54,153 bases of DNA from Alphaproteobacteria bacterium (GTDB taxonomy: Bacteria > Pseudomonadota > Alphaproteobacteria > Rs-D84): assembly GCA_031549365.1 (NCBI GenBank), contig JAVBPX010000006.1, positions 1-54,153 of the forward strand, given 5' to 3'. The notes beneath the pieces were generated by a model. The model was not told where the DNA came from. It saw only the letters and a program-made list of their open reading frames with translations, and ran no database searches. The translations under genes and the position numbers were made by a program. Of the stretch, positions 1,339 to 41,256 are shown one piece after another; the stretch's first letter is position 1, and every line of letters starts with the position of its first letter.

Positions 1339-2664
1339 TTGAAAACCAAAGTTATTTATATTTCCGGTGGGGCCAAATTTTCCGAGGCTGAAATTAATGC
1401 TGTGTTTACAGAAATTCGTCAGCAAATGGGTTGGGATGACGTTGTGTTATTTGGTGTTCCAATGGATGATCCGGTGGAATTTAATTCCGATAGGGGTACT
1501 TTGGATGTTGGGCAAGAGATTTTGAACCAAGTTCAGACTGACGATGTGATTGAAGGGGCAATTTCGGGAAAATGGGCACAGAATAACCCAATCGAGGATG
1601 ATGTTTTGATGAATGAGCCGCTGGTGGACGCGGTTTGTGCGGCGACCATTGTTGATGATGAAATTGTTGATGTTTCATGCGAAGCAATTAAGGCGGATGA
1701 AGTTATTGAAGTAGTTGCGGATAAAGTGGATGAGATTGCCGCACCAGTAGAGTTGAGCCGCAATGACAATAATATTGAGGCGGAAGAAGCGTCTGTAAAT
1801 ATAGCGCCGATATTGAGTGTTTTGGGTGCTGTTAAGAATATTAGTGAAGTGGTTGTTGAAAATAATGCGGATATTGCAAGGGCAACGGAATTGGTTCGCA
1901 ATGATAATATTGACGAGATTTCAGAAGAATTAGATGATGAAAAATCATTGGTTGCGGCAATTTTTAATGTCGATGAAAATGTTGAGAGTGTTACACAAGC
2001 AGAATTGATTCGTAATGACAATAATTTAGAGAATGTTGAAGTTTCAGTTACTTTGGTGCCGATTTTAGATAATGAGGGGGGCGAGGTTTCTGTAACATCT
2101 GAGATGGTTTCAGAGGATGAAGATGAAGTAATTTCCATTGCATCAACCCCAGTTGATTCAGATGAAAATTCAGAAGTGGCTGATGTGCTTATTGTAAAAC
2201 CGATTGATCTTGATCATGATCCGTTTTGTTTTGGCGATGCTTCGACGTTATCATTTGATCAGAATGGTGCGGATTTAAATTGTCCAACAGCGCCAGAAAT
2301 CGAAGATGAAGAGGATGAAGAAATATTTTCAGTTAAATCATCTTTTACGATAGAAGATATTTTGCCGACAGTGCCAGGATTGACCGAAGAAAAACCGCAA
2401 GATGCAACTTTGCAAGAATTGGCGCAACAGTTCAGCGAGCACAAGTCGGACGAGCCGATTGATTCTGTGGATAAGCCGTCCGGGTTTTCCAAGCTGCGTC
2501 AGATGTTATTTTTGAAAAAAAATGATAGCGAAACAGAAACAAAAACAAAGACCAAGGCAAAGAAAAAAGAGCCTATGTTTGGTTTGTTGGATTTAATTGA
2601 TCAAGCTGATGATGATGTGGATTCTTTTGATTTGCCAAAGTTTTTAAGGCCGGGCGCAGTATGA
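1339..2664 (+). CDS. Acidic, largely disordered protein with FtsZ C-domain-like N-terminus and FtsZ-like C-terminal peptide (no GTPase domain)
   Basis: TTG start with GGAG SD; N-term VIYISGG..EI..IR..VLFG; D/E-rich linker; C-term DSFDLPKFLR. Confidence 0.6.
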   Translation: MKTKVIYISGGAKFSEAEINAVFTEIRQQMGWDDVVLFGVPMDDPVEFNSDRGTLDVGQEILNQVQTDDVIEGAISGKWAQNNPIEDDVLMNEPLVDAVCAATIVDDEIVDVSCEAIKADEVIEVVADKVDEIAAPVELSRNDNNIEAEEASVNIAPILSVLGAVKNISEVVVENNADIARATELVRNDNIDEISEELDDEKSLVAAIFNVDENVESVTQAELIRNDNNLENVEVSVTLVPILDNEGGEVSVTSEMVSEDEDEVISIASTPVDSDENSEVADVLIVKPIDLDHDPFCFGDASTLSFDQNGADLNCPTAPEIEDEEDEEIFSVKSSFTIEDILPTVPGLTEEKPQDATLQELAQQFSEHKSDEPIDSVDKPSGFSKLRQMLFLKKNDSETETKTKTKAKKKEPMFGLLDLIDQADDDVDSFDLPKFLRPGAV

Positions 2665-3725
2665 AGAAAATTATCGCGGGCGCATTTCTGATTTTTTTTG
2701 GGGCTTCGGGTGCGTTTGCGGTTTCTGATTTTGAAATATTACAGAGATTAAATGATTCAGGGATGCCGGCGACGCTAATTTCAACACCGAATGGAGATGT
2801 TTTTCGCGTTTTGGATACCACTTGTTTTGCGTACAGTATTCGTAATTTTATTGATTTCGCACAGGATATTTTATATTTTATAACAGCATTATTATTGTTT
2901 GGTTGGGGGATTTCTGCGATTCGTGGGTCCAAGATTGATTGGATTGAAAATACAAGAAATTTGTTTTTAATATTTGCCGTGGCTACATCAATTAATCCGA
3001 TTATGTCTGTGATTTATGGTGGGCAGGAAATTCATGAAATTGTTTGTCCGACGATTGATGTGCCGGCGGATTCTGTGCGGATGGCTTTGAATGGACGTGC
3101 GGTTTTAAACATGCCAAAAGTTGTTGAAGAATTGGTTGTTGAACGTGGAGCGGAACAGGAAGTTTATACGCGTTCGGATGGTCAAACGTCGTTAATGTTA
3201 ACTGGGCCGGATTATGATCCCGCGCTGGTTTTATCGATGAAATCGGATACAACATTTAGGCGCGCGATGGATATTGTTGCGCGTTTAGAAGGTGGATATG
3301 CAAATAATCGCGCTGATCGTGGTGGACGTACAAATTTTGGTATTACTGAACGATCGTATGGGGCGGATGAAGTTAATAATATGACAAAAGATCGTGCGGA
3401 ATATTTAATGTATAGAGATTTTTATCGAGTGCGTGGAATTGATACCTTGCCCGATACAATTCGGGATGTCGCGTTTGATATGTCCGTTAATTCTGGGCCT
3501 GGGGCTGCTGTTATCAGTTTGCAAAAAGTTTTGGGTGTGTCCCAAACGGGCAAGGTTGATGATGCAACATTAAGTGCGGTAAATAATTACAGGGGGGATT
3601 TGCGCGATGCTTATTTGCAAGAACGCGTTGATAAATACAATCGCATTATTAAAAATAATCCCAGTCAGGAAGTGTTTAAAAAGTCTTGGATGAGGCGAAT
3701 TGATGCATTGAAAAATGCAGCGTAA
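2661..3725 (+). CDS. Membrane-anchored glycoside hydrolase family 108 lysozyme with PG-binding domain
   Basis: EGGYANNRADRGGRTNFGIT GH108 motif, FDMSVNSG, C-terminal F..SW.RRI; signal peptide and two TM segments; ATGA overlap with upstream gene. Confidence 0.85.
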   Translation: MKKIIAGAFLIFFGASGAFAVSDFEILQRLNDSGMPATLISTPNGDVFRVLDTTCFAYSIRNFIDFAQDILYFITALLLFGWGISAIRGSKIDWIENTRNLFLIFAVATSINPIMSVIYGGQEIHEIVCPTIDVPADSVRMALNGRAVLNMPKVVEELVVERGAEQEVYTRSDGQTSLMLTGPDYDPALVLSMKSDTTFRRAMDIVARLEGGYANNRADRGGRTNFGITERSYGADEVNNMTKDRAEYLMYRDFYRVRGIDTLPDTIRDVAFDMSVNSGPGAAVISLQKVLGVSQTGKVDDATLSAVNNYRGDLRDAYLQERVDKYNRIIKNNPSQEVFKKSWMRRIDALKNAA

Positions 3726-4157
3726 TTAATTCATAAAATATGTTTCTGTATAATTAATTAAATCAATAACGTATGTTTTGATGTATGTTGCTGTTTTTTC
3801 GGCAGCCAGGCCATCTGTCATGGATCCGCATTTTGGATAGCATTCATCAGGACCATTATAAATATTTATTGAAGCAGCGGCGGTTTTATTGGCCAAATCG
3901 ATTAAATCGCGTTTCATCTGTTTTGCGGATGATTTGTAATAAGTATCAATTAATCGGCCAGCCACACGGATATAGCAATTTGTTTTTGTGTTGGTTGATG
4001 CCGTCATATTTGATTGGGAAAAATCGATATCCATTGATTGTTCGGATTCCATATCGCAACCATTTAAATCATTACGGTATTTTGATACATCGACATTTGC
4101 GTTTGCGGACGCAATTGTCCCAAATATTAATGAAAATGAAATAATCCATGGTTTCAT
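3726..4157 (-). CDS. Secreted hypothetical protein (Cys-containing)
   Basis: Signal peptide MKPWIISFSLIFGTIASANA; start likely ATG 4157. Confidence 0.6.
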   Translation of the reverse strand: MKPWIISFSLIFGTIASANANVDVSKYRNDLNGCDMESEQSMDIDFSQSNMTASTNTKTNCYIRVAGRLIDTYYKSSAKQMKRDLIDLANKTAAASINIYNGPDECYPKCGSMTDGLAAEKTATYIKTYVIDLINYTETYFMN

Positions 4158-4224
4158 TTTGTTCACCAGTTTTTTTATGTGTTTTGATTCTAGCACAATT
4201 TGAAAATAAACGAAAGGAGTTTAT

Positions 4225-5625
4225 ATGAGTAAAAATATTTTAACAATGTATCGCATGGCGAAACAGCAACGTGCCGTTTGGGATAAACGTTGGGATGATT
4301 GTCAACGATATACAATACCAATGAGAGATGATGAAAGTGCAAGTTTATTTGATGCAACTGCCGCGGATGCGGTTGATATGTTGGCTGCATCATTATTTTC
4401 ATTGATGACGCCGCCGGAAAGTTTTTGGGTGTCGTTGACGTCGGCAGATTCTGAAATTAATGTCGATTTCACTCGTTCAGAAAATGCAATACGAAATCAT
4501 TTAAATCAATCAAATTTTTATACCGAAATTCATCAGTGTTATTTGGATTTGGCGATTTTGGGGACTGCATGTTTATACATGAGGGAAGCCCCAATTGGTG
4601 CAGAATCTGCATTCCAATTCCAAGCAATTCCGATGAAAAATGTTTATGTTAACCGCGATTCTGTTGGCGATGTTTCATCTGTGTTCTATGTTTGTTCAAT
4701 GACATCAGATGATGTTGTTAATACGTATTCGGATTGGGATATATCCGATAATTTTGCAACCAAATTTAAAGAAAATCCAGATGCGCATGTGTCAATTGTT
4801 CAATCAATAGTTCGGAATGATTCTGGATATTCGTATGTTGCATTTATTGATTCCGAAAATGATAATTTTGAATCGTGTATTTTATCGCGTGGACAATTTG
4901 TTAAAAATCCATTTTTGATTTTTCGTTGGTCTGCAATGTCGGGTGAAGTTTACGGACGGTCGCCTGTGATGCGGGCGTTGCCAGATATTAAAACTGCGAA
5001 CAAAGTTGTTGAATTGGTTTTGAAAAATGCAACGATTGCGGTTTCTGGTATTTGGCAGGCGGATGATGATGGTGTTTTAAATTTATCAAATGTTCAATTA
5101 ACGCCAGGTGCAATTATCCCCAAGGCTGTTGGGTCGGCTGGTTTGACTCCGTTGCGCGCAGGGGCCGATTTTGATGTGTCGCAATTGATATTAGAAGATT
5201 TACGTGCGCGTATTCGTCATGCTTTGTTGGCGGATCGTTTGTCGATTATGTCGGACAAAGTTATGACCGCCACAGAAATCATAGCGCGAAATACCGATAT
5301 GATGAGAATCTTGGGTGCAACATATGGGCGGATGTTAAATGAATTTATTCGGCCGATGATTGATCGAGGGATGTATATTTTGGCCCGTCGTGGATTAATA
5401 GATCCTGTTATGTTGGATCGTGGTGTTATGACATTGCGCTATGTCGCGCCGATTGCGCGATTGGCTAGCGATGAACAGGCAAATCAAGTTTTATCATGGG
5501 TTAATACAATGGATGTTTTGGGAGTGTCTGGTTCTGTTGATAAATCGGCAACTGTTAAATGGTTGGCGAATGCGTTGCATATTCCAAACGAATTAATAGT
5601 GGTGGATGAAAATGGAATTGCGTAG
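4225..5625 (+). CDS. Phage portal / head-tail connector protein (T7/BPP-1 Bbp21-like)
   Basis: FDATA, SNFYTEIH, GTACL, RW..GEVYGRSP..ALPDIK, MTATEI motifs of podoviral portals; AAGGAG SD. Confidence 0.88.
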   Translation: MSKNILTMYRMAKQQRAVWDKRWDDCQRYTIPMRDDESASLFDATAADAVDMLAASLFSLMTPPESFWVSLTSADSEINVDFTRSENAIRNHLNQSNFYTEIHQCYLDLAILGTACLYMREAPIGAESAFQFQAIPMKNVYVNRDSVGDVSSVFYVCSMTSDDVVNTYSDWDISDNFATKFKENPDAHVSIVQSIVRNDSGYSYVAFIDSENDNFESCILSRGQFVKNPFLIFRWSAMSGEVYGRSPVMRALPDIKTANKVVELVLKNATIAVSGIWQADDDGVLNLSNVQLTPGAIIPKAVGSAGLTPLRAGADFDVSQLILEDLRARIRHALLADRLSIMSDKVMTATEIIARNTDMMRILGATYGRMLNEFIRPMIDRGMYILARRGLIDPVMLDRGVMTLRYVAPIARLASDEQANQVLSWVNTMDVLGVSGSVDKSATVKWLANALHIPNELIVVDENGIA

Positions 5626-5815
5626 TGTTGAATTGGCCGCCGCGAGATGTTTTGAATCGCGAGAAGGGGCAATAGTATTAAATCATTTGCGCTCCATTAC
5701 ATTTGGGCGTGTTTTGGGCGTAAATGCAACCGAGGCAGAGTTGCGGAGTTTGGAAGCGCAACGTTTGTTTGTAAGGCAGATTGATGGATTAATTGGGAGA
5801 GGAAAAAACGTTTGA
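5612..5815 (+). CDS. Small phage protein (Bbp19-like) following the portal
   Basis: F.S.EG..VL..LR...LG.....EL...E.QR..V..I pattern; overlaps portal 3' end. Confidence 0.65.
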   Translation: MELRSVELAAARCFESREGAIVLNHLRSITFGRVLGVNATEAELRSLEAQRLFVRQIDGLIGRGKNV

Positions 5816-5902
5816 AAAACTTGTTTTCATTCATTCTATTTTGAAACGTTTTATGGCTTGATTTTTATCAGGCAAGGAATATGGAATTAATTTTTAGCCT
5901 GT

Positions 5903-6589
5903 TTAACGGGATAATAAATCGTGGATGTTATTTTTGAATTCTGTGGCGCCTCCGTTTGCCGGGTGACGAACACGTGTAACAGTATATCCCATTCCTGTCA
6001 AAGTTTCATGCGCAATGCGGCCAACCGCCACCACGGTGGCGTTTGGAAACAGATTTAGGAATTCGACCAATAAATGTTTGCCAGATTCTACTTCGTCATC
6101 TGTTGGTGTTCGGTTCGTTAGTGTGTCGCCAGGTTTATGTGGATGAAAGGCGAATGTATTCCAATGCAGCCAAGAAGTTGGTGTTGGCATTAATGATAGC
6201 ATTGTTTTCCAAACAATTGATCCGGTGGGTTCACAAAATCCGCCGGATACCAATGCTGGTTTTCCCGCCGCTGCCAATTTGGTTGGGCATGATGTGCGGC
6301 ATGGTTCGGAATCAAAAAAATAGCATGATGGCATTGTTTTAAATAAACGTTCGGATGTCATGGCGATGCCGCTGAAATGACCGCCTTGGTAGCCCAGAGC
6401 TTCCGCCACCAGGATAAATTTTGCATCACGGCGAGCAATTAAATAGTTATATAGATTTTCACTGCGTTTTACTGCTGCATCAGCCCCGATATCCCATTGA
6501 TTATCAGATTCTGACCAAGGGTTAAAGATGTTTTGGCGGTGGTATTTTTGCAAATTGGTTATGAATGATTTTACTTTATTTTCAAACAC
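5903..6589 (-). CDS. Uracil-DNA glycosylase superfamily protein
   Basis: AEALGYQGGHFSGIAMTSE, WN.FAFHPH, NRTPT, VAVGR, RHPANGG motifs. Confidence 0.85.
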   Translation of the reverse strand: MFENKVKSFITNLQKYHRQNIFNPWSESDNQWDIGADAAVKRSENLYNYLIARRDAKFILVAEALGYQGGHFSGIAMTSERLFKTMPSCYFFDSEPCRTSCPTKLAAAGKPALVSGGFCEPTGSIVWKTMLSLMPTPTSWLHWNTFAFHPHKPGDTLTNRTPTDDEVESGKHLLVEFLNLFPNATVVAVGRIAHETLTGMGYTVTRVRHPANGGATEFKNNIHDLLSR

Positions 6590-6613
6590 GTTGAAGGCCT
6601 CTGATTTATTTTT

Positions 6614-6638
6614 AGATTCTGAAATAAATTCAGGATGA
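6614..6638. repeat. REP-like palindrome (GATTCTGAAATAAATTCAGGATGA)
   Basis: Sister copy at 45328-45351 and degenerate in-frame copy at 1516-1542. Confidence 0.6.
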
Positions 6639-6661
6639 TTAATGGTAATCTTTTGATTTTA

Positions 6662-6736
6662 TGGCGCACCCAAGAGGATTCGAACCTCTATCCCGGCCTC
6701 CGGAGGGCCGTGCTCTATCCATTAAACTATGGGTGC
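6662..6736 (-). tRNA. tRNA-Arg (CCG)
   Basis: GCACCCA acceptor, CGGCC-CT-CCG-GA-GGCCG anticodon arm, GGTTCGAATCC, CCA. Confidence 0.96.
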
Positions 6737-6823
6737 GAACTGTTGCAGTTTATATATTTTTTAAAAAATTTCAATATTATTTAATTTTTATGGTTTTTTG
6801 TATTTTGTTCATTTGGATGATAT

Positions 6824-6851
6824 CTTGAAATTTTGGTATTTGCAACTATGT
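6824..6851 (+). promoter_or_regulatory. Putative RpoH (sigma32) promoter of clpB
   Basis: CTTG-N17-ACTATGT, close to the alphaproteobacterial CTTG-N17-CYTATNT consensus. Confidence 0.5.
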
Positions 6852-6936
6852 TGATTGGGAAAATAATCCAAATGATGTCGGGATGATTTTATGTTATCAT
6901 TATGGGTGTTGTTTGGGCAAAAGATGAGGTTTGAAG

Positions 6937-9477
6937 ATGGTTGATATTGAAAAGTTTTCAGAAGCGTCACAGCGTGCATTGGCAACAGCGCAACAAATTG
7001 CGGTTGCTAGGAAAAATCCAGTTGTATCGCGCGGGCATTTAATGCGAGCAATTTTGGATGATGAAACGGGTGTGATTGCAAATGTTATTGATTTTGCGGG
7101 CGGTGATTTAATTTCTTTGGATCGTGAGGTTGATGAACTATTTGCCAAGGAACCAACGGTTTCGGGGTCGAATGTGTCGCCCACTTTTTCCGAACAGGTT
7201 ATTGAAGTTTTAAATAATGCCCAGGGATATGCGCGTGCCACGCACGAGGATTATGTTACGGTTGAACGTATTTTTCAGGCCCTGATTAATGCGGGTATTG
7301 GACGTAAATCCAATTTGACAGCCAATGGGGTCGATGCGGCATTAGTGCGTGCGAGGGATGGGGTGGATATTTCGTCCCCAAATGCCGAGGACAAATATCA
7401 AGCATTGAAAAAATACACGACTGATTTTACGGATTTGGCGGCCAAGGGTAAATTAGATCCTGTTATTGGGCGAGATGAAGAAATTCGACGCACAATTCAA
7501 GTATTATCACGTCGTACAAAAAATAATCCTGTGTTAATTGGAAATGCGGGTGTTGGTAAAACAGCCATAGTCGAAGGTATGGCGCATCGGATTATTTCAG
7601 GTGATGTTCCAGAAAATTTATTGCGTAAACGTTTGTTATCGTTGGATTTGGGCGGATTGTTGGCAGGGGCCAAATATCGTGGCGATTTCGAAGAGCGTTT
7701 AAAGGGTGTTTTAAAAGCTGTCAAAGATTCAGGTGGTCAGATTATTTTATTCATTGACGAATTACATACCATGGTTGGTGCGGGCAAGGCCGAAGGGTCA
7801 ATGGATGCCGGCAATTTATTAAAGCCGATGTTGGCCCGTGGAGAATTACACTGTTTGGGGGCAACCACATTGGATGAATATCGCGAACATATTGAAAAAG
7901 ATCCCGCATTGGCGCGCCGTTTTCAGCCTGTGTATGTTGATGAACCCACGGTGGATGATACGATTTCAATTTTGCGCGGGTTAAAGGAAAAGTACGAAGG
8001 ACATCATGGGGTTCGTATTGCCGATAATGCGTTGGTGGCTGCTGTTCGTTTGTCCGATCGTTATATTACCGACAGATTTTTGCCAGACAAGGCGATTGAT
8101 TTAATTGACGAAGCTGCCGCACGTGTTCGTATTGAAATTTCGTCCAAGCCGGAAAAATTGGATGAAGTTGATCGTCGTTTAATGCAATTGAAAATCGAAC
8201 GAGAATCTTTGAAGCAAGAAAAGGATGAAGAATCCAAAAAACGTTTAAAAGATTTGGAAAAAACTCTGGCGGATGTCGAGGCTCAATCAAATACTATGAC
8301 CAAGGCATGGCGGGCGGAACAGGAAAAAATGCATGGATTATCGCATGCGATAGAAGAATTGGATTCAGTTAAGGCCGAGATGCTGTCTGCGATGCGGTCT
8401 GGGGATTTTGAACGGGCCGGGGCTCTGCAATACGGCAAGATTCCAGAGTTGGAAGCCAAAATCAAAGAATTGGAAAAAAACAAAGACGCGGCGAAAGACT
8501 ATAAAACCGTTAATTCCGATCATGTGGCGGCAATTGTTTCGAAATGGACTGGGGTTCCTGTTCAAAAGTTGGCTTTGGCGGAACAAACGAAATTGTTGGA
8601 TATTGAAAAAGATTTGTCCAATCGGGTTGTTGGTCAAGAACATGCATTGGACGTTGTTGCACGTGCAATTCGTCGTTCCCGTGCTGGATTGTCAGATCCG
8701 CGCCGACCACAGGGTTCATTTATGTTTTTAGGGCCGACAGGTGTTGGTAAAACCGAATTGGTGAAATCATTGGCGGATTTATTATTTAATGATGATAATG
8801 CCATGGTTCGGATTGATATGTCAGAATATATGGAACAACATTCTGTTGCGCGTTTAATCGGATCGCCCCCTGGGTATGTTGGATATGATCAGGGCGGAAT
8901 ATTGACCGAGGCCGTTCGTCGCAGACCATACCAAGTTGTTTTGTTTGACGAGGTTGAAAAAGCTCATCCAGATGTATTCAATGTTTTATTACAGGTATTG
9001 GATGATGGGCGTTTGACCGACAGTCATGGGCGTGTTGTTAATTTTTCGAATACAATAATTATCATGACCAGTAATTTAGGATCCGATATTTTATTGGAAA
9101 ATCCGACGGCAGATGATTTGGTGATGGAGCGTGTTCGCAAACATTTCAGACCGGAATTTTTAAACAGAATTGATGAAATTGTTATGTTTCGTCCATTAAC
9201 ACCTGCCGTTATGGGATCAATTGTAAAAATTCAATTGGATAGATTGAATAAACGCTTGGCAGATCGTCAGTTATCATTACATGTATCCGATCGTGCGATT
9301 GAATGGTTGGCGGATAATGGGTTTGACGCCCAATATGGCGCGCGTCCATTGAAGCGATTAATTATGTCCGAGGTGGAAGACAAAGTTGCTGATTTAATTT
9401 TAATGGGCAAGACGAAAGAGGGACAGGAGATAGTGGTGGATGTGGATAAGAAGAGTAAGACATTAAAAATCAGCTAA
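6937..9477 (+). CDS. clpB: ATP-dependent chaperone ClpB
   Basis: Two AAA+ modules ([16 protein letters not shown]), coiled-coil middle domain, GARPLKR. Confidence 0.97.
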
Positions 9478-13155: not shown

Positions 13156-13419
13156 ATGGCAACAAAGAAAGCTGGTGGATCAGTTAATAATAATAGAGAT
13201 AGTGCCGGGCGCCGTTTAGGTGTTAAAAAATACGGCGGTCAAAATGTTATCCCAGGTAACATCATTGTTCGTCAACGTGGAACAAAAGTTCACCCAGGTA
13301 CACATGTTGATATGGGAAAAGACCACACAATCTTTGCGACAGTTGAAGGCAAGGTTGAGTTTAAGAAGGGCAAGAATAATAGGGCGACTGTGTCCGTTGT
13401 TCCAGCAACAAAACATTAA
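13156..13419 (+). CDS. rpmA: 50S ribosomal protein L27
   Basis: [31 protein letters not shown]. Confidence 0.97.
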
Positions 13420-13941
13420 AACACATGAAAACGGCCATCTAGGCCGTTTTCTTTTTCAAAATCCTCGGTTACGTACGTCTATGTACGCGCCCTTCGGCTG
13501 TTGAAAAACAAAACGTCTATATGACTCGTTTTGCTGTGTTTTAGAAAAAAGAAGGGCGCATCATTTGGATGCGTTTTTAATTTTCTCGGGGGTATCTCGG
13601 GTGTCTATACCCGCTCAACCCCTCGAAAATAAAATAACCCACCCACTATACTTGTTTCGACTATGCCTATCTGAATTGGTGCTTGGGTCGTTTGCCCGTC
13701 GGTAACGACCGGGAATTCATAAATTTTTATCATTGCCATTCAAAAATTAATTCATTCCGGGGTCGGTGTGATTAATTTTATTAATATTTGGTGCCTCGCG
13801 TTATGGCGCGTTTTTTCATTTTTTGCGGGGTTACGTACGTCTATGTACGCGCCTTTCGGCTGTTGAAAAACAAAACGTCTATATGACTCGTTTTGCTGTG
13901 TTTTAGAAAAAAAGAAGGGCGCATCATTTGGATGCGTTTTT
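13418..13941 (+). repeat. Cluster of three RPE1-like palindromic elements plus a second repeat family
   Basis: Elements at ~13418-13542, ~13556-13655 and ~13795-13903; ~112 bp direct repeat 13467-13578 vs 13829-13941; 13655-13767 is an inverted copy of 30017-30130. Confidence 0.8.
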
Positions 13942-19199: not shown

Positions 19200-19295
19200 T
19201 TGCTATTTTTTGCGGTTTGTGGTATAATATAGTATGTAATGGACAAGATTTGTCCGATGTTTATTTATCCCGACGGTTTCGTCGGGATTTTTTAA
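19200..19295 (+). promoter_or_regulatory. TTGCT-N-TATAAT promoter and two-hairpin leader of Mtd_N gene 1
   Basis: ttgcta-17-tataat; ggacaa-gat-ttgtcc; tcccgacg-gttt-cgtcggga followed by T6. Confidence 0.6.
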
Positions 19296-19311: not shown

Positions 19312-19863
19312 ATGGCGAGAGCAATTCAATTAAGGCGCGGTTCCCGCGTCGAACATAAAACATTTATTGGACGTGATGGCGAAATAACAGTTGATACAAC
19401 AAATAAATCATTGGTGGTGCATGATGGCGATATTGCGGGCGGTTATGAACTGGCCCGGGCCGATTTGTCGAATACAGATGTAAATGTCGCATTGAGCAAT
19501 TTGCGCGTGGAAATGAACGCGATGAGGGTCGAGTTGGAGAATAAAATAGTAGAGCCGGCGGATTATGTTGTTGATTATTATCCACGCGAATCGGATATGG
19601 CAAGTTGGGATGGAGTATCAGGATTTAGAAAATATAACAGCGGATATATCGAACAATGGGGCCAGGTTGGCGAAGGATCAACAATAATAGTAAACTTTCT
19701 CTGCCCTATGAGAAATACGGGCTATAACATATCTGTATTTAATGGGGATGGCGGGATATCAGCTAATTACAGATTATCATATTCTGCTATGACTATAACA
19801 TCGGTAAAAATTGTTTCAACAGTATCAACAATTAGTGGAAAGCGTTGGCGTATTGCAGGATAA
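19312..19863 (+). CDS. Phage tail-fibre-like protein 1 (Mtd_N N-terminus, gp53-like C-domain)
   Basis: IQLRRG...GEITVDTT.KSLVVHDG..AGG..LARADLSN; GFRKYNSGYIEQWG. Confidence 0.8.
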   Translation: MARAIQLRRGSRVEHKTFIGRDGEITVDTTNKSLVVHDGDIAGGYELARADLSNTDVNVALSNLRVEMNAMRVELENKIVEPADYVVDYYPRESDMASWDGVSGFRKYNSGYIEQWGQVGEGSTIIVNFLCPMRNTGYNISVFNGDGGISANYRLSYSAMTITSVKIVSTVSTISGKRWRIAG

Positions 19864-19866
19864 ACC

Positions 19867-19892
19867 AATGCCCCAAAATTAATTTGGGGCAT
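19867..19892. terminator. Hairpin between convergent genes
   Basis: aatgccccaaa-attaa-tttggggcatt. Confidence 0.6.
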
Positions 19893-19896
19893 TATG

Positions 19897-20871
19897 TTAT
19901 AAACGTTTGTTTGGCAATGTGAATAGTCCGCCGAATTTGAAGTCCCATTCTGATGGGTTAAATGGTCCCATGCCATTGTCCGAATAAAATGTTAGTTCTG
20001 AAAAATATAACTTTCCATTAACATTAAACCAATCAACGCGAACAAATGGAAAATCAGCCGACAATATATTTGATAATTTCAGCATTTCATCGTAGTTTTT
20101 TGGCATTTTAAACTTTGTGAAATTATTCCCATGTGCGCGATTAAACGGATATTTATTAAATTTCATATCAAAAAAGTCCATTTTAACGTCTGTTGAGCGT
20201 TCAGAGCACAGGAAAAAGTTTTTAATTTCTCCGTTATATGATTGAAATTTATAATCAAATAAATCTCCATCAATCTGTTCAATATATTTTTCAGCAATAA
20301 TTTTTGGTTTAATGTTTTTATATGCCCATTCGAAACTGTAAAAATAATGATTTGATTTTGGATTCATCCATTTGCGTAATTTTTCTTTTGCATCATCAAT
20401 ATCCAATTTTGATTTATCACTACAAATTATGTTTTGGCCACTGCCCCAATTAATTTTTAGAGCAAATTGGTTGGGCAATAAATCCCAATCAATATCGTCG
20501 ACCGAATCCCAAACACCCAATAACGGCACTAAATATTTTTCCCCGATTTTGTTTTTGATGTATTCTCGTACAGCAAATTTGTCAGCACATTTTGTCATTA
20601 ATGGATCGTGATAGTATAATTTTAACCATTGGATTTTTTCATTAAACGATTTCGGATTATCAATATCTGGTTTATATCCAACAGAATTTTCGAATTGATA
20701 TTTCAATATGAATTTTTTATCTTTGATTGATAAATTATTATCAAAACGGCGAGCATATAGTTTGTTATATAACTTTTTTTGTGTATCTGATCTTTTAAAA
20801 GAAAATATCTTAACTTTAAACAAATATATCCGAACACGACCTCTCTTTTTTTCAATTTTAAATATTTTCAT
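19897..20871 (-). CDS. TupA-like ATP-grasp amidoligase (polysaccharide modification)
   Basis: NPKSFNEKIQWLKL, DKFAVREY, DYKF, FPFVRVD, SELTFY motifs. Confidence 0.9.
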   Translation of the reverse strand: MKIFKIEKKRGRVRIYLFKVKIFSFKRSDTQKKLYNKLYARRFDNNLSIKDKKFILKYQFENSVGYKPDIDNPKSFNEKIQWLKLYYHDPLMTKCADKFAVREYIKNKIGEKYLVPLLGVWDSVDDIDWDLLPNQFALKINWGSGQNIICSDKSKLDIDDAKEKLRKWMNPKSNHYFYSFEWAYKNIKPKIIAEKYIEQIDGDLFDYKFQSYNGEIKNFFLCSERSTDVKMDFFDMKFNKYPFNRAHGNNFTKFKMPKNYDEMLKLSNILSADFPFVRVDWFNVNGKLYFSELTFYSDNGMGPFNPSEWDFKFGGLFTLPNKRL

Positions 20872-20916
20872 TTGTCCCTCTCGGATGTAAAATTATTAAT
20901 TTATAATAGTTTTTCA

Positions 20917-21777
20917 TTAATGGTGTTTCCCTTGTTTAGAATTATAGGTAAGTTTGAAATCATTCTTTCTGAATCTAAATGATGGATTAGTAAGGTTTGG
21001 GATATTCAACTTGTTTTCCCATAAAACATAATCCAGGCTGAGTTGATCCCGTCTGGAATAATTTTCGATAAAATGCCACCATTCGTTCATAATCTTTATG
21101 CATTTTTTATCCATATGTTTTCGAAAAATCAAGGTTGTTTCGTGTAGACCATAATTTTTTGGAAATTTATCGGATTTTAAAATTTGCTGCATTTTTGACA
21201 TGATTTTTGGGTTGTCTTTTGACGATTTTTCGCATGCAGATATTTCATCGTATATGCAGTTACGCTCGAAATGTTCCGGGATCGACAGAATTTTGTTTTT
21301 TTTAATTATATTTTTAATCCTATTAAAAATATAACCACTGATAATATTTACATTCCCATCGACCCATAGGGAATATTCATAATTTTGCAATAATTCATGT
21401 GGATGGGTTTTATGCCACCGTGCATTTCGAATATTATCAGATTTAGTGTATTTAAGTGCACGGATTTCCCAAATGTCAATATTGCCAGCATTAATTAATT
21501 TTTCATTGTCGGTAAAACAAATATAATCCCAATCAAAGTTTATATATCGTTGATATTGCAAATCATCATATTCCCCAGTTATGCAGGTATATACAGTGTT
21601 TTTTGCAATACGCCTTTTTTTATACTCTATATATTTTTTTATATTTGATTTTTGATATAGTTTGTCAATGTCGTCATTGATTTTGTTTTTATGCTTTTTA
21701 TAACTCTTGGGTGATAAAATGCCTATGAAGCGTAATATTTTGTACCAAATTATTAAATAGTAAAATTTTAATTTCAT
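20917..21777 (-). CDS. Glycosyltransferase domain protein (DUF616/TOD1-MUCI70-like)
   Basis: VYTCITGEYDDL, YICFTD, K.HPH, SLWVDGN, H..RNCIYDE, RDQLS. Confidence 0.85.
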   Translation of the reverse strand: MKLKFYYLIIWYKILRFIGILSPKSYKKHKNKINDDIDKLYQKSNIKKYIEYKKRRIAKNTVYTCITGEYDDLQYQRYINFDWDYICFTDNEKLINAGNIDIWEIRALKYTKSDNIRNARWHKTHPHELLQNYEYSLWVDGNVNIISGYIFNRIKNIIKKNKILSIPEHFERNCIYDEISACEKSSKDNPKIMSKMQQILKSDKFPKNYGLHETTLIFRKHMDKKCIKIMNEWWHFIENYSRRDQLSLDYVLWENKLNIPNLTNPSFRFRKNDFKLTYNSKQGKHH

Positions 21778-22721
21778 TTATTTCTCTTGAAAGCGATACT
21801 TTTTGGAATCGATATGTAAAATATAGGTAAATGAAACAATCGAATTAAAAACCGATAGTTTCCATTTTTTTTGTACCGGCCCCGAATTGATAAAAAACTT
21901 TTGTTGATTAAATCAAAAAATACATATTGGAAACGGCGATTTTTAAAATTTCGAATTACTTCTGGATCTACTGTTCGCGTCAGATTATTTTCGATGAGTT
22001 CGGCCAGTTTTTTATTAGTGCATTTTATTGATCCGATAATGTTTTTTATTGATCCGATAAAGTTGCTATCGTTGTTATAAAATGCAGCCTTTTTAACGAA
22101 TGGGACACCATGATTTAAAACCCAGATCGGATTTAAATAGGGCCAATTTAAACGATATTTTACCAACGGATTTAATTTGTGCCCATGCTTTTTAATTAAT
22201 TCGGACAATCCAATTTCATATTTTTCAATGATTAGATCTTTGTGATTTTCGTGCTTAACCGATTTCATAAATTCATTGAACCAATCGGATAGAAATATTG
22301 AAGAGGACAATCCGACAAACCAAGACTGAATATGTGGACGACTATAATCCAACATAAACATCCCGACCGCGTCCGAGCCAGAATTTTCCAATTTTTCAAC
22401 AATTGGCTTTAAATCAGATGTTGGACCATAAGCACTGTCGTTTACCAAATAAACCCAATCGTATTTTGATAATAAATCGTTGTCGCGGGCCCAAAAATAA
22501 GCACGCTTATACGAACCAAAATCATATTCGCCGTGTTTGCCGATAATTTGATGAATTGTATATGGTTTTACTTTTTTAGCCTGGGCATCCGAATTGTCAT
22601 TATCCGTTACAAAAATAATATCGCCCAACTTGGATAATTCAGCCAGATAATAAATAACATAATCATCAATTATTGCGTCGCGGTCATAGCTGGCGAACAG
22701 AAAGAGGCGGATTTTGGTCAT
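21774..22721 (-). CDS. Rhamnan synthesis F (RgpF)-like protein, copy A
   Basis: FASYD..IDDYVIYYL, YDFGSYK, LVNDSAYGP, HIQSWF, YEIGLS, PFVKK. Confidence 0.8.
   Translation of the reverse strand: MTKIRLFLFASYDRDAIIDDYVIYYLAELSKLGDIIFVTDNDNSDAQAKKVKPYTIHQIIGKHGEYDFGSYKRAYFWARDNDLLSKYDWVYLVNDSAYGPTSDLKPIVEKLENSGSDAVGMFMLDYSRPHIQSWFVGLSSSIFLSDWFNEFMKSVKHENHKDLIIEKYEIGLSELIKKHGHKLNPLVKYRLNWPYLNPIWVLNHGVPFVKKAAFYNNDSNFIGSIKNIIGSIKCTNKKLAELIENNLTRTVDPEVIRNFKNRRFQYVFFDLINKSFLSIRGRYKKNGNYRFLIRLFHLPIFYISIPKSIAFKRNK
21814..21923. repeat. Inverted repeat (3' block, 110 bp) pairing with 23901-24010
   Basis: Three mismatches by manual alignment. Confidence 0.85.
22363..22694. repeat. Inverted repeat (5' block) pairing with ~23148-23479
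   Basis: High identity over ~330 bp; 22363-22484 is identical (122 bp) to the reverse complement of 23358-23479. Confidence 0.9.
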
Positions 22722-22848
22722 AAATTATCCATTTTGTATATTATAGTATGTGGATTTTGGATGATTATAGTGTTCAAGTCAAGGGGAAATTTATTTGCTT
22801 GATTAAACCGCGGGTTGAAATTCTGGATTTGTTTCAATTATTAAAAGA

Positions 22849-22891
22849 ATATTATAGTCTGTCGACTTATAGTGTGTGCTTTTTTTATAAT
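22849..22891 (+). promoter_or_regulatory. C-box-like double operator and -10 of a likely leaderless transcript
   Basis: ATATTATAGTC-TGTC-GACTTATAGTG vs the PvuII-type GACT-N3-AGTC-TGTA-GACT-N3-AGTC; TATAAT at 22886-22891, 6 nt before ATG, no SD. Confidence 0.7.
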
Positions 22892-22897
22892 TTTTAT

Positions 22898-23131
22898 ATG
22901 ATTGAAAATTTATCCCAAATCATTGCAGAGCGTGTGCAATTTGAGCGTAAAAAATTGCATTTATCGCAAGAAAAACTGGCCGAGAGAGCGGGGATTCACA
23001 GGACTTATGTTGGAATGATCGAGCGGGCTGAAAAAAATGTTACAATTTACAGCTTGGCCAAGATTTGCGGTGCGTTTGGGATTACATTATTTGAATTTTT
23101 TAATGCAAAAGAGTTTAAAGATGAAAAGTAA
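22898..23131 (+). CDS. XRE-family HTH regulator, R-M controller (C) protein-like
   Basis: 77 aa; LSQEKLAERAGIHRTYVGMIERAEKNVTI contains the HRTY recognition helix of C proteins; overlaps next gene. Confidence 0.85.
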   Translation: MIENLSQIIAERVQFERKKLHLSQEKLAERAGIHRTYVGMIERAEKNVTIYSLAKICGAFGITLFEFFNAKEFKDEK

Positions 23132-24050
23132 GCGATTGTTTTTATTTGCCAGCTATGACCGCGATGCAATAATTGATGATTATGTTATTTATTACCTGGC
23201 TGAATTATCCAAGTTGGGTGATATTATTTTTGTAACGGATAACGATAATTCGGATGCCGAAATCGCGCGCGTAAAACCATATACAATCCATCAAATTATT
23301 GGCAAACACGGCGAATATGATTTTGGTTCGTATAAACGTGCTTATGTTTGGGCTCGTGACAACGATTTATTATCAAAATACGATTGGGTTTATTTGGTAA
23401 ACGACAGTGCTTATGGTCCAACATCTGATTTAAAGCCAATTGTTGAAAAATTGGAAAATTCTGGCTCGGACGCGGTCGGATTATTTTATCACGATTATCT
23501 GGACGAGGCGTATTTGCAATCCTGGTTTATTGGGTTAAAGCCAAAAATATTCAAATCACGTTGGTTTGATCACTTCATTTCTGATGTAAAAAAAGAAAAG
23601 ACTAAGGAATTAGTTGTTGAAATGTATGAAATGAAATTTACAAAATTATTAAAAGAAAAAAAACACACCATATCATTTATAACAAAACACAAAAAAAACC
23701 AAACATTTATTGATCCAATATGGGCATTGAATAGTGGGATTCCTTTTATAAAAAAGGCTTCGTTTTACAATATCGAAGGGGAATTTCTGGACAATGTGCA
23801 ATGGGGCAATGATGATTTGGAGCGTGCGGTTAAAAAAAATATAACACGCGTTATGGATCAGGATGTTTTGAAAAACATGAGAAACAGACGGTTCAGGTTC
23901 GTATTTTTTGATTTAATCAACAAAAGTTTTTTATCAATTCGGGGTCGGTACAAAAAAAATGGAAACTATCGGTTTTTAATTAGATTGTTTCATTTGCCTA
24001 TATTTTACATGTCTGTGCCGAAAAAATGGGCCATCAAGGAGGATAAATGA
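23121..24050 (+). CDS. Rhamnan synthesis F (RgpF)-like protein, copy B
   Basis: Paralogue of 21774-22721; start ATG 23121 by alignment to copy A. Confidence 0.8.
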   Translation: MKSKRLFLFASYDRDAIIDDYVIYYLAELSKLGDIIFVTDNDNSDAEIARVKPYTIHQIIGKHGEYDFGSYKRAYVWARDNDLLSKYDWVYLVNDSAYGPTSDLKPIVEKLENSGSDAVGLFYHDYLDEAYLQSWFIGLKPKIFKSRWFDHFISDVKKEKTKELVVEMYEMKFTKLLKEKKHTISFITKHKKNQTFIDPIWALNSGIPFIKKASFYNIEGEFLDNVQWGNDDLERAVKKNITRVMDQDVLKNMRNRRFRFVFFDLINKSFLSIRGRYKKNGNYRFLIRLFHLPIFYMSVPKKWAIKEDK

Positions 24051-24991
24051 AAGATTTAATTTCCGTTATTATTCCGGTATACAATGTTGAAAAATATGTA
24101 GAACGATGCTTGGATTCTGTTATCGCGCAAACATATAAAAACATTGAAATTATTGTAATTGATGATGGTTCTGTTGATAGTTCTGTTTCGATTATTAAAA
24201 AATTTAAAGACAAGCGTATAAAACTGATTGTCAAAGGGTATAATTCAGGGCAAAGTGATTCAAGAAATATCGGATTGTCTTTGGCCAAAGGTAAATACAT
24301 CGGTTTTATCGATAGCGATGATTATGTTGATTTGAACTATTTTGAAAAAATGCACAATGCTGCAAAACAGAATGATGCTGAAATTGTTATGGTTGGGATG
24401 TGTTCCGATGATGGATATAATAAAATTTATGATCGTATAATGGATAATGTTTATGTTTCGTTTTATGATAAATTAAAAACTGCAAAAAACGGTAGTACGT
24501 GCAATAAATTATTCAAGTATGATTTTATAAGAAAAAATAAAATAAGCTTTCCAACAGGATTGTTTTGGGAAGATAATGTCTTTATTTTGCATGCCGTATA
24601 TTATGCGAAAAAAATGGCAACCGTGTCAGATGTGTTTTATTATTATGTTAAAAATCAATCTTCTACTACTCGTTCTGAGGCTAATATAAAAAAGAGATCT
24701 GATGATAGTATTACTGTGATAAAACAAATGATGGATTTTGCCAAAGCAAAACAATTTTCAAAACTGGATATAGATTTGCTGGTAAATTTTTGTTTTAGCA
24801 ATATTGTTGCAAAATCGGATATGAAAAATAGGGCTTATGTTAAAAAACTTGATTCTGCAATTGGTATACATGGAGTATTGAATAAAAGACGTCCAAAATT
24901 TCCATTTTGGTATAAAATTATAGGCTTGTTTTTGGGACGAAAAAAATACAAAGAATTCAAAAATAACTGGAAAAAGGCACGCTATGATTAA
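24047..24991 (+). CDS. Glycosyltransferase family 2
   Basis: ISVIIPVYN, IDDGS, FIDSDD, WED. Confidence 0.92.
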   Translation: MKDLISVIIPVYNVEKYVERCLDSVIAQTYKNIEIIVIDDGSVDSSVSIIKKFKDKRIKLIVKGYNSGQSDSRNIGLSLAKGKYIGFIDSDDYVDLNYFEKMHNAAKQNDAEIVMVGMCSDDGYNKIYDRIMDNVYVSFYDKLKTAKNGSTCNKLFKYDFIRKNKISFPTGLFWEDNVFILHAVYYAKKMATVSDVFYYYVKNQSSTTRSEANIKKRSDDSITVIKQMMDFAKAKQFSKLDIDLLVNFCFSNIVAKSDMKNRAYVKKLDSAIGIHGVLNKRRPKFPFWYKIIGLFLGRKKYKEFKNNWKKARYD

Positions 24992-26534
24992 ATTGTTATA
25001 TTTTAATGCGGAACGCAATTTTGGGGATGAGCTGAATGTTTTAATTGCAAAAAAGATGTTTTGCATTGATGTTGTGCCAGAGGGGGGTAAAAAAGCGGAT
25101 GCGATTTTCATTGGCAGTTTGTTGCAAAGTTTGACTGTAAATAAAAATCCGCGTTTTTGGAAAAATCTGTTTAGAATATTTAAAAAGAAAAAACGGCCCA
25201 TTAATGTTTGGGGGTCTGGTTTTATTAGCGCACCAGCTGGCCGAGAATATTTACCCAGGCCATTGAATGTTTATGCAGTGCGCGGTAAATACAGTTTGGA
25301 TCGTTTGAAAAAATTAACTCATAAATCTTTGGATAATGCTGTGTTGGGGGATCCTGGCTTGTTGGCATCCAGGTTTATTCCACAGCAATCAAAAAAATAT
25401 GATGTTGGGATTATTCCGCATTATGTAGATAAAAAAAATCCGGCGTTAAAAAATATAAAATTAAAGGGATTATCACACAAAATAATTGATGTTCAACAAG
25501 ACCCAGAAACTGTTATTAAACAGATTTCTGAATGTGGATTTATTTTGTCTTCGTCATTACACGGTTTGATTATTGCTGATAGTTACGGCATCCCAAATCA
25601 ATGGATTGAGTTATCCGATATGGTTCTTGGAAGCGGGTATAAGTTTGCAGATTATTATTCTGCGTTTGGATTGTCAGGTATCAATCAGGTCGATTTGCGT
25701 ATAACACAAATTGTAGATGCTGATATTAAAAAATGGACGAAAGCATATCCGGTTAAACAAAATGTGGTTCAAAAATTATGTGATGGTTTGCAGAAAGCAT
25801 TTCCGTACAAGGTAAAATTTACATTGCCGTTACATTTAATACAAAATATTCGATTTTTAACGGCTGTGGCGGAACAATTTCCAAATGTCGTGGTGGACAA
25901 GGAAAGCAAGCAAATAATTGATCATTTAAATAAATATTTTAAATACAATATCGAAACAGTTGATAAAAATTCGGTAAATGTTTTTGATATAAAAAATATA
26001 TCGTTCGAACATAAAACTCCTGTTGTTCGATTTGGAGACAGGGCGTGGCCGTTGGTTTTTTCAAAACAAATGTTGGACTTTTGTCAGAATGTGGTGGGAA
26101 AAAATGGTATTACATTTTCTGGATTTAAAACAAAAATGCGCGTTAGTTGTTTAGAAAGATGGATTAAAAATATTTTAAAGAATGATTTTGAGTTTGATGG
26201 AGATAAAAAGAAGTTTTCCATTAAAAATCCGGTTGATGTTGAAATAACGTTTTCAAATAATGGTCGAGATTGGCCAGAAAAGTCTTGGGATAATGAATAT
26301 TATTTGGAATTAAAAAAATCTGAATTTGTTTTGTGCCCGAATGGCGATTTTATTTGGACATATCGGTTTTTTGAATCAATTATGTGCAATGCAATCCCGA
26401 TAGTCGAGGATGTGTGCGATTTGTATGATGGTTTTTATTTTTATGATATGAAAACCCCGTTGTCCCGATTGAAATATAATAAAAAATGGGCCCAACATAA
26501 TTTAAAATTGTTTATTGAAAGATATATGTTTTGA
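24984..26534 (+). CDS. Polysaccharide pyruvyl transferase fused to an exostosin/GT47-like domain
   Basis: NFGDELN, WGSG, AVRG, GDPGLL, IIPH, SSSLHGLIIADSYGIP; C-term SEFVLCPNGD..WTYRFFESI..AIPI. Confidence 0.8.
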   Translation: MIKLLYFNAERNFGDELNVLIAKKMFCIDVVPEGGKKADAIFIGSLLQSLTVNKNPRFWKNLFRIFKKKKRPINVWGSGFISAPAGREYLPRPLNVYAVRGKYSLDRLKKLTHKSLDNAVLGDPGLLASRFIPQQSKKYDVGIIPHYVDKKNPALKNIKLKGLSHKIIDVQQDPETVIKQISECGFILSSSLHGLIIADSYGIPNQWIELSDMVLGSGYKFADYYSAFGLSGINQVDLRITQIVDADIKKWTKAYPVKQNVVQKLCDGLQKAFPYKVKFTLPLHLIQNIRFLTAVAEQFPNVVVDKESKQIIDHLNKYFKYNIETVDKNSVNVFDIKNISFEHKTPVVRFGDRAWPLVFSKQMLDFCQNVVGKNGITFSGFKTKMRVSCLERWIKNILKNDFEFDGDKKKFSIKNPVDVEITFSNNGRDWPEKSWDNEYYLELKKSEFVLCPNGDFIWTYRFFESIMCNAIPIVEDVCDLYDGFYFYDMKTPLSRLKYNKKWAQHNLKLFIERYMF

Positions 26535-26576
26535 TATAAAAACTCCCAATAGGGAGTTTTTTATTTGAGGTCGGGT

Positions 26577-27174: not shown

Positions 27175-27336
27175 TTATTCCACCGTTATTTCTGGTTCAA
27201 TAATTTCAGGTTGGTCGATTAAAATCAATTCGCCGTTTTCAACGGATAAAATTTTGCCCGATGCGTTTGCCTGGATTGCCATTTCTGTATAATGTTTAGG
27301 ATTTTGATTAAATATTGATATTAATTGTTGTTCCAT
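27175..27336 (-). CDS. Small protein upstream of tail-fibre-like gene (possible fibre chaperone)
   Basis: ATG 27336 with AAGGAG SD; 53 aa; stop 1 nt before the Mtd_N start. Confidence 0.55.
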   Translation of the reverse strand: MEQQLISIFNQNPKHYTEMAIQANASGKILSVENGELILIDQPEIIEPEITVE

Positions 27337-39220: not shown

Positions 39221-39308
39221 TTGCTTTTTTTTGTATTTTTTGATATAATGGTATAGTTATCCCGATTTGGGATTTTTTTATTGTCCGGCGTTTCGCCGGA
39301 TTTTTTAA
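39221..39308 (+). promoter_or_regulatory. TTGCT-N-TATAAT promoter and two-hairpin leader of Mtd_N gene 3
   Basis: ttgctt..tataat; atccc-gattt-gggat-Tn; tccggcg-ttt-cgccgga-T6. Confidence 0.6.
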
Positions 39309-40116: not shown

Positions 40117-40180
40117 TTTTTAAACCATTGAAAATACTTACTATGGTGCGTTTTTGAATGGTTTTTGTATTGTGATGCGT

Positions 40181-41137: not shown

Positions 41138-41256
41138 TTGGGCCCCCATGGTTATGATCATTATGGATTGTTTGAATTATGTTGTCAAACTTTATTGACT
41201 TTGATTTCTGGTGTGTTAAAATCGCGGCATCATTTAATTAACCAAAGGGGTAAGTA

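Follow-up and report, generated by a model that had tools for sequence, protein, structure and literature searches.

A portal–Bbp19 gene pair of an Rs-D84 alphaproteobacterium as the probable detached end of an inherited podovirus-type particle gene set with possible gene transfer agent-like use

We analysed a stretch of 54,153 nucleotides from an alphaproteobacterium of the order Rs-D84 (GenBank assembly GCA_031549365.1, contig JAVBPX010000006.1, forward strand), hereafter the window, which is the entire contig C4 of a genome of 911,163 bases in 15 contigs rated 97.6% complete. Near its start lie two adjoining phage-type genes, one for a portal protein and one for a small Bbp19-like protein. 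This pair is probably the detached 3′ end of a vertically inherited, podovirus-type set of genes for a DNA-packaging particle, possibly used in the manner of a gene transfer agent (GTA); the remaining structural genes were found on another contig, C8, of the same genome. We hold it very likely that the gene set is domesticated and under selection, and consider gene transfer as its use an even call. The two genes, of which the initial annotation had described the portal as intact, are as follows.

4225–5625, + strand: portal (head-to-tail connector), 466 amino acids (aa); PF12236 Head-tail_con, E-value (E) 9e-101; phrog_332, 2.2e-88
5606–5815, + strand: Bbp19-like small protein, 69 aa; PF25181 Phage_Bbp19, E 4.6e-7, 30 bits against a cut-off of 25

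The portal match spanned profile positions 2–489 of 489, marking an intact portal of the T7/HTVC010P type, and was the only PF12236 match in the whole genome. The start of the Bbp19-like open reading frame (ORF) overlaps the 3′ end of the portal gene by 20 bases. Its product, which has 7 invariant columns across 20 aligned sequences, is predicted to be a three-helix protein (model pLDDT, the predicted local distance difference test score, 94.4), and the best match of the model to PDB structures reached an E of only 2.9. The host-like composition and strong Shine-Dalgarno sequence noted initially were confirmed: GC content around the pair was 0.37–0.42 against 0.385 for the contig, and AAAGGAG lies 5 bases before the portal ATG. 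A consensus promoter scan of 3600–6950 returned 10 sites against 11.8 ± 4.2 expected. Neither terminase nor capsid genes were found in the window when 55 ORFs were compared with Pfam and 31 with PHROGs, and the three tyrosine-recombinase matches of the genome were all on C14 and C15, in agreement with the initial statement that no terminase, capsid or integrase gene stands beside the pair. The rest of C4 is filled by housekeeping genes (clpB, serS, rplU, accBC, lexA, secG, ackA, a class A penicillin-binding protein gene, thyA, obg and prfB); the flanks, initially called non-phage, are not entirely so, since a phage-type GH108 domain is encoded at 2661–3725.

The pair is nevertheless not an orphan, as it had been called, because the other structural genes are present on C8. 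When the ORFs of the pelagiphages Hodr (OQ414635.1) and HTVC010P (NC_020481.1) were searched against the whole genome with tblastn, matches fell at C8:9998–17680, with the capsid 44.5% identical to that of Hodr. The terminase, the T7-like capsid and scaffold and the tail tube proteins A and B that had been proposed for a search of the rest of the genome were all found there, in a single-strand cluster at 6.8–18 kb. By Pfam and PHROGs, the cluster begins with p95 (phrog_29007), a Hydrolase_2-like wall hydrolase, a T7-type scaffold (PF05396, 1e-11) and a histone-H1-like repeat gene, continues with p266, a GNAT gene, the capsid (PF19821, 7e-71) and p75, then with tail tube A (phrog_394, 9.5e-38), the nozzle or tube B (phrog_376, 5.9e-94), p150 and p191, and ends with the terminase ATPase ORF, a 426-base gap, the terminase nuclease ORF and a pilin-like gene. 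With the portal on C4, the genome thus holds a structural module of the T7/HTVC010P type: gp8-type portal, T7-type scaffold, capsid, tubes A and B and a gp17-type fibre anchor. The HK97-type capsid family PF05065 had no match in the genome, while the control match was obtained in Caulobacter, and the system is in this respect distinct from the siphoviral RcGTA, as first suggested.

The same genes were found across the order. According to the available text of one source, Enterousia belongs to Rs-D84, all members of which have reduced genomes (PMC12306168). Related loci were found in metagenome-assembled genomes from animal guts named Candidatus Enterousia, 'Rickettsiales bacterium' or 'Alphaproteobacteria bacterium', with at least 584 related stretches in genome contigs. 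Of 41 related genomes, counting the present one, 32 had the portal and 34 the capsid; they spanned six families and mostly gave one match each, so that single-copy conservation across relatives was borne out; identities were 41–63% for the portal and 63–81% for the capsid. The gene order in 80 named loci was scaffold, capsid, p75, tube A, tube B, p150, p191, terminase ATPase piece (TerL-N), terminase nuclease piece (TerL-C), portal and Bbp19, with Bbp19 directly after the portal in 74 of the 80, and the same synteny recurred, with local rearrangements, in 23 loci of all six families. Portal and capsid shared one contig in 22 of 29 genomes, 3.7–22.6 kb apart. The initial idea of scattered particle genes therefore holds for this genome, where they are dispersed, but the scatter is secondary, and the ancestral state is a contiguous cluster that ends in portal–Bbp19, often followed by an Mtd_N gene.

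In this genome, a rearrangement has split the cluster between the pilin-like gene and the portal. In one relative of family f4 (G027), rplU and serS abut Bbp19–portal, and in the window the same genes lie 5.5 kb beyond Bbp19; given serS–rplU near the portal end in both, the portal end has stayed put and the break lies on its other side. A direct adjacency of C4 and C8 was considered and is not supported, since the start of C4 overlaps C15 at a repeated end and the ends of C8 overlap nothing. The overlap with the end of C15 involves positions 1–141 of C4, and the same end of C15 also overlaps the ends of C10, C11 and C12, which makes it a repeat at contig breaks.

The terminase is encoded in two pieces, which matched positions 290–458 and 468–706 of phrog_38 as ORFs 426 bases apart. 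Among 14 loci of the order examined, the ATPase piece was an ORF of its own of 171–213 aa in all 14 and the nuclease piece one of 265–357 aa in 12, the latter not being found in the stretches of L106 and L113. Alignment with the unsplit terminases of relatives outside the order placed the cut just after the GTPH coupling motif. Invariant in the alignment were GTPH and the motifs that we take to be Walker A (SGKS), Walker B (CDDVEVP) and those of the nuclease (W..DPS, E.N and DD..DA). The gap between the pieces (7710–8135, − strand, of L096, our label for the C8 locus) contains TTGACA-17-TATATT, some 130 bases rich in pyrimidines and a strong hairpin terminator; this promoter–hairpin element matched no Rfam family, and an Rfam scan of C8:5300–18500 returned a tRNA only. 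In an Enterousia locus (L046, 5776–9497), three opposite-strand genes lie between the terminase pieces, namely the replicative helicase gene dnaB, a gene for a double helix-turn-helix regulator and an unknown gene, and the downstream flank is bamA–rseP–cdsA–uppS–frr.

We then measured selection on these genes by the Nei–Gojobori ratio of non-synonymous to synonymous substitution rates (dN/dS) on within-genus pairs, where a dS of about 1 makes the ratios rough and, if anything, too high. Medians were 0.17 for the portal, 0.12 for the capsid, 0.14 for TerL-N, 0.18 for TerL-C and 0.20–0.36 for the others. A tree of six genes from 29 genomes needed five changes of family label, the minimum possible, against a mean of 11.4 for shuffled labels, and none of 200 shuffles was as low. 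The ratios below one and the vertical phylogeny that had been proposed as tests of a maintained system were thus both observed. They also bear on the possibility that the genes are no more than slowly decaying remains of a prophage, the portal pair being a leftover. Such decay could account for the broken cluster of this genome, for the six relatives that lack portal and capsid and for the single stop codons within a few matches (portal in G008 and G029, capsid in G032 and G010). Frames are intact, however, in nearly all genomes of six families, in genomes under 1.1 Mb, the ratios run from 0.12 to 0.36 and capsid identity is held at 63–81%, which brings debris close to being refuted.

The clusters extend well beyond the order. 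The capsid query matched 98 of 401 sampled Alphaproteobacteria, or about a quarter, some 65 of them at 50–69% identity; the capsid-positive genomes mostly had single matches and were 1.1–6.6 Mb in size. In 36 loci around the 50–69% matches, tblastn located these genes in an unchanged relative order; about half of the loci had all of them, and the rest were partial within the 20-kb stretch, one having the capsid only. At class level the clusters measure 9–13 kb and run portal–Bbp19–scaffold–capsid–p75–tube A–tube B–fibre–terminase–p95–hydrolase, with an unsplit terminase where it was read (487 aa in L144, 499 aa in L145) and, in L143 and L151, a pectate-lyase-like tailspike of 675–708 aa at the position of the Rs-D84 stub. 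Of the seven class loci annotated, six have an S24 repressor-like gene next to the cluster and six a GTA_holin_3TM holin. Their flanks were housekeeping genes, and neither the clusters nor their surroundings showed an integrase or replication gene. The best 80 loci came mostly from Azospirillum species, together with Niveispirillum, Skermanella, Rhodovibrio, Roseospira, Roseomonas and Elioraea. The clusters sit among housekeeping genes, and most Azospirillum species carry one.

A four-gene tree of 71 rows required 28 changes for 29 family labels, again the minimum, where shuffled labels averaged 50 and none of 200 shuffles was as low. Rs-D84 formed one clade, and every family with at least two members fell on one side of a branch except f89, which sits in an unresolved trio with f200; the support for f5 was 48. 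Both genomes had the same flanks in the four same-genus pairs (f60, f114, f127 and f144); in f88, f89, f93 and f139 the flanks of the compared genomes, of different genera wherever both codes are listed, were not shared. This pattern points to an old and largely vertically inherited element of which the Rs-D84 form would be a derived, reduced variant. New here is the class-wide distribution of homologous clusters that track host families; we found no published description of the Rs-D84 or class cluster in the literature searched, supplements not being covered.

Host-specific phages could mimic part of the class-wide pattern, and the element may still be selfish, a satellite or defective phage whose replication or ejection is supplied by a helper and whose divergence simply follows that of its hosts. 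The S24 repressor-like and lysis genes of the clusters outside the order resemble those of an inducible prophage, flanks differ between genera of four families, and the nearest phage group includes temperate members, some HTVC010P-type pelagiphages carrying integrases, according to the part of the source available (PMC8477408). What makes a selfish element improbable is that integrase and replication genes were not seen in or beside the seven class loci or the two loci here, that host genes such as dnaB are interleaved, that positions are fixed across families, and that families with at least two members group on the 71-row tree, f89 excepted.

Three Mtd_N genes, initially reported as intact and 14–35 kb from the pair, were each verified by PF18454 and phrog_9648 matches. 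They are the only Mtd_N genes of the genome, and phrog_9648 is annotated as 'tail protein'.

19312–19863, + strand: Mtd_N protein 1 (Mtd1), 183 aa; PF18454, 3.6e-13; phrog_9648, 1e-11
26577–27173, − strand: Mtd_N protein 2 (Mtd2), 198 aa; PF18454, 4.7e-14; phrog_9648, 1.7e-13
39337–40116, + strand: Mtd_N protein 3 (Mtd3), 259 aa; PF18454, 1e-5 and 28.7 bits, over the cut-off; phrog_9648, 2.8e-11
27175–27336, − strand: small ORF, 53 aa from its ATG, directly upstream of Mtd2 and preceded by a hairpin and T-run, read from the sequence

In alignment, the Mtd_N proteins have a near-invariant N-terminus of 50 residues and unrelated C-termini, which are Gp53-like (as in Mtd1) or without assignment, and Mtd1 is a candidate receptor-binding fibre. 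The small ORF had no Pfam match and is a possible member of the set, placed there by position only. A possible counterpart on the tail is p191 (191 aa), the model of which, built from a 16-sequence alignment, has a pLDDT above 90 over residues 1–72. The model matched the tail-attachment domains of podovirus fibres, LME-1 first (E 1.4e-7), then Carin-1, HRP29, PhiM1 and the N-terminus of T7 gp17 (1.2e-3), and on this model p191 is a predicted fibre anchor with only a short shaft. We infer that the Mtd_N proteins may be exchangeable tips of the particle.

It is also conceivable, if rather unlikely, that the Mtd_N genes lie outside the particle system and encode independent, glycan-associated surface or secreted proteins, or are remnants of seroconversion-type cassettes. 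Most copies are far from the cluster, and all three here abut glycosyltransferase genes, and both GT2 genes that the genome possesses are among these neighbours; in relatives, 20 Mtd_N loci were compared, of which eight adjoin a polysaccharide gene, two are ambiguous, four stand beside ackA and six are next to neither. On the other hand, an Mtd_N gene directly follows Bbp19 in 10 of the 80 loci, and Mtd_N was found in 26 of the 35 genomes that carry a capsid or portal gene and in none of the six from which both are absent (Fisher p 0.001, the genomes being kin and not independent). The conserved N-terminus with a variable C-terminus is typical of fibres, and a leader–terminator design is common to the Mtd_N, capsid and terminase genes. 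Mtd3 occupies an ackA-side position common to four related genera (L261, L270, L271 and L273). As for their surroundings in the window, Mtd1 and Mtd2 face each other across a low-GC island (0.28–0.34) of seven polysaccharide genes (19312–27173), and Mtd3 is followed by a GT2 gene (39337–41161).

The leader sequences of Mtd1 and Mtd3, read by eye, and of two genes on C8 contain the following elements.

19200–19293, + strand: Mtd1 leader, promoter-like TTGCTA-17-TATAAT (19200–19228), then a hairpin and T-run (19269–19293)
39221–39306, + strand: Mtd3 leader, promoter-like TTGCTT-17-TATAAT (39221–39249), then two hairpins with T-runs (39259–39306)
C8 (L096) 7710–7760: leader hairpin and T-run of the terminase nuclease piece
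C8 (L096) 13375–13420: leader hairpin and T-run of the capsid gene

A TG precedes the −10 hexamer of both Mtd promoter-like sites. Of the sigma70-type promoters initially assigned to all three Mtd genes, candidates were read for Mtd1 and Mtd3; Mtd2 is preceded by the small ORF instead. Among 950 ORFs of at least 60 aa scanned for a terminator-like hairpin and T-run within 45 bases upstream, 16 leader terminators were found genome-wide, of which four precede the capsid gene, the terminase nuclease piece, Mtd1 and Mtd3 (hypergeometric P 9e-5). The nearest upstream ORF is 159–426 bases away from each of these four, leaving room for a promoter, and promoter-like hexamers were read upstream of the hairpin for Mtd1, Mtd3 and the nuclease piece. 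No wider regulon emerged from the other leader-terminator genes, which encode CcrM, a methyltransferase-like protein and unknowns. The leader terminators suggest co-ordinated control, possibly by antitermination, which has reportedly been published for the Caulobacter GTA. In one metatranscriptome of the study from which the DNA probably came, contigs were identical to p75, p266 and the 3′ part of the capsid gene, as well as to host typA/bipA, a DEAD helicase gene and a Skp/OmpH-like gene region with an adjacent 360-aa ORF; none of the RNA contigs listed lay over the terminase pieces. The H1-like gene had a very high summed RNA depth, and its repeats may attract the reads of other organisms.

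In the proposed explanation, the cell would assemble capsids on the portal, and the two terminase pieces would act together to fill them with DNA. No integrase was found at the C8 or C4 locus and no replication or excision genes among their annotated genes, no genome-wide search for replication genes having been made; from a set of this composition we propose that the packaged DNA would be host DNA. The tail would bear the p191 stub, to which the separately encoded Mtd_N proteins would attach as exchangeable receptor-binding tips, and the position of the Mtd_N genes beside surface-glycan genes makes the cells' own polysaccharide the probable receptor. Lysis would then free the particles, which would bring DNA to kin in the fashion of a GTA.

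Several points weigh against this explanation. The Rs-D84 particle, its packaging of DNA and transfer are predicted from genes, and the set can be lost, both portal and capsid being missing in 6 of the 41 genomes (completeness 63–98%; 98% for G009). The clustering of labels on the trees is also expected for host-specific phages. We know of no terminase cut between ATPase and nuclease that translocates DNA, and the arrangement would be mechanically unprecedented. No small terminase was identified, and a GTA_holin_3TM-type holin was not detected in the genome. The contact between the Mtd_N proteins and the stub is presumed. As for expression, RNA contigs may include DNA carry-over and their depths cannot rank genes, and the portal region, for which no RNA data set was listed, shares next to none of its sampled words with two RNA runs. 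Lastly, the large ORFs of Hodr (1247 and 783 aa) and of HTVC010P had no match at E 0.01, and these queries yielded no homologue of other ejection proteins; DNA delivery may then be impossible or may use unrecognised proteins, divergent or non-homologous substitutes being possible.

The last point also bears on whether a domesticated particle is kept for a purpose other than transfer, as a lysis-released structure that binds or damages neighbours or the partner, or as an empty or protein-filled capsid, with terminase and portal retained for assembly. The failure of pelagiphage queries to find ejection (gp14–16-like) proteins and the reduction of the fibre to a stub speak for such a role, as does the view, in the available text of PMC12306168, that the lineage depends on partner cells. 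A precedent is the repurposed role proposed, in the part of the source at hand, for RcGTA-type remnants under purifying selection in reduced alphaproteobacterial endosymbionts (PMC9254644). All catalytic motifs of both terminase pieces are kept under purifying selection, though, which is hard to explain without DNA cutting and packaging, and portal, nozzle and tube A are all retained; we consider a non-transfer purpose unlikely, if a good deal less so than a selfish element.

Compared with known systems, the nearest isolated viruses are the HTVC010P-type pelagiphages represented by Hodr and HTVC010P (portal 28–30% and capsid 30–44.5% identical), and no isolated phage closer than 44.5% in the capsid was found. 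They share with the Rs-D84 cluster the order portal, small protein, scaffold, capsid, tube A and tube B, but are autonomous phages of 34–36 kb with replication genes and large internal proteins, and the terminase is unsplit in the two aligned. Portal, Bbp19 and Mtd had initially been taken for components of the type of Bordetella phage BPP-1; the Pfam families Bbp19 and Mtd_N are indeed named after BPP-1 proteins and both are matched here, but the nearest isolated phages are those of the HTVC010P type. BPP-1 as the nearest relative was rejected, Bordetella being neither among the 25 best portal rows or the ten commonest names nor among the best capsid matches.

The RcGTA/CcGTA type (Rhodogtaviriformidae) is likewise alphaproteobacterial, vertically inherited and under purifying selection, with a head–tail cluster lacking replication and integration genes, accessory genes at other loci and retention even in genomes under 1 Mb. 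It differs in its siphoviral derivation and HK97-type capsid (PF05065), where the present system has a PF19821 capsid and a PF12236 portal; the portal of the RcGTA type is of the PF04860 type. FpGTA, set beside Rs-D84 by description only, is according to the available text also a phage-derived and probably podovirus-like system of a gut bacterium, with capsid, portal, terminase, receptor-binding and lysis genes at two loci; it belongs to a Firmicutes species (Faecalibacterium prausnitzii), and its packaging of host DNA has been measured (PMC12946183). The Rs-D84 system, by comparison, is conserved over a whole order, has a split terminase and is so far a matter of genes. In Azospirillum, 10-kb particles have been taken for GTAs, and the available text indicates RcGTA-like genes and not the present cluster (PMC3899980). 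The clusters of Azospirillum, Niveispirillum, Rhodovibrio, Roseospira and other Alphaproteobacteria share an orthologous order with this genome, their capsids being 50–69% identical, and differ from the Rs-D84 form in a terminase that is a single ORF where read, an S24 repressor-like gene, a GTA_holin_3TM holin and a full-length tailspike (L143 and L151).

A broader reading, to which we give somewhat less than an even chance, is that Alphaproteobacteria hold a second, ancient, podovirus-derived GTA family beside RcGTA. This family would have begun as a cluster of about 9–13 kb under the control of an S24 repressor, found from Azospirillum to marine Rhodospirillales, and its derived form in Rs-D84 would combine a two-subunit terminase with a fibre stub and trans-encoded Mtd_N tips. 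The linkage of the tip genes to surface-glycan genes might then aim delivery at cells with the same coat.

Further features near the two loci were as follows.

2661–3725, + strand: signal peptide, two hydrophobic segments, GH108 lysozyme domain and PG_binding_3; PF05838, 1.6e-17; phrog_315 endolysin, 4.7e-41
L096 15456–16031, − strand: histone-H1-like lysine/alanine repeat gene between scaffold and capsid; PF07382, 6.8e-34
L096 13704–15415: GNAT acetyltransferase gene and 266-aa gene (p266), inserted between scaffold and capsid
L096 6302–6823: pilin-like gene with a weak N-terminal methylation motif

The protein of 2661–3725 is possibly a lysis or wall-opening enzyme of the particle system, its membership being uncertain; G027 and G032 have a gene with the same N-terminal domain next to the portal, and G032 has a GH108 gene within the cluster. 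The interval 1339–3725 holds a gene pair, for a 441-aa acidic protein and a protein with a signal peptide and two transmembrane segments; the pair recurs across family f1, its products being conserved at the N-terminus and variable at the C-terminus. The 441-aa protein, of which only the first 45 or so residues recur in the family, and a 156-aa portal neighbour were considered as parts of the system and not counted, both being without a Pfam or PHROG match. On the C8 side, p266 matched one of the 80 related loci. The pilin-like gene may belong to the cluster; in several families such a gene lies between the terminase nuclease gene and the portal (L100, L109, L111, L112, L114 and L115). Finally, an unverified human faecal record of 5,084 bases under the name 'Bacteriophage sp.' (L281, MT838907.1) encodes a portal (40% identical) and a capsid (66%) of this element type; it is probably a piece of bacterial chromosome deposited as phage.

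If the particles work, bacteria with genomes below 1 Mb that are thought to live off partners would gain a built-in means of DNA exchange and with it an escape from mutational decay. Gene transfer in the Alphaproteobacteria would then draw on two virus lineages domesticated independently. With its terminase split by nature, the system would make it possible to ask whether a packaging motor needs its ATPase and nuclease domains on one chain, and the linkage of fibre and glycan genes suggests a simple genetic means of directing transfer to kin. Gut samples rich in Enterousia would allow a direct test of the system.

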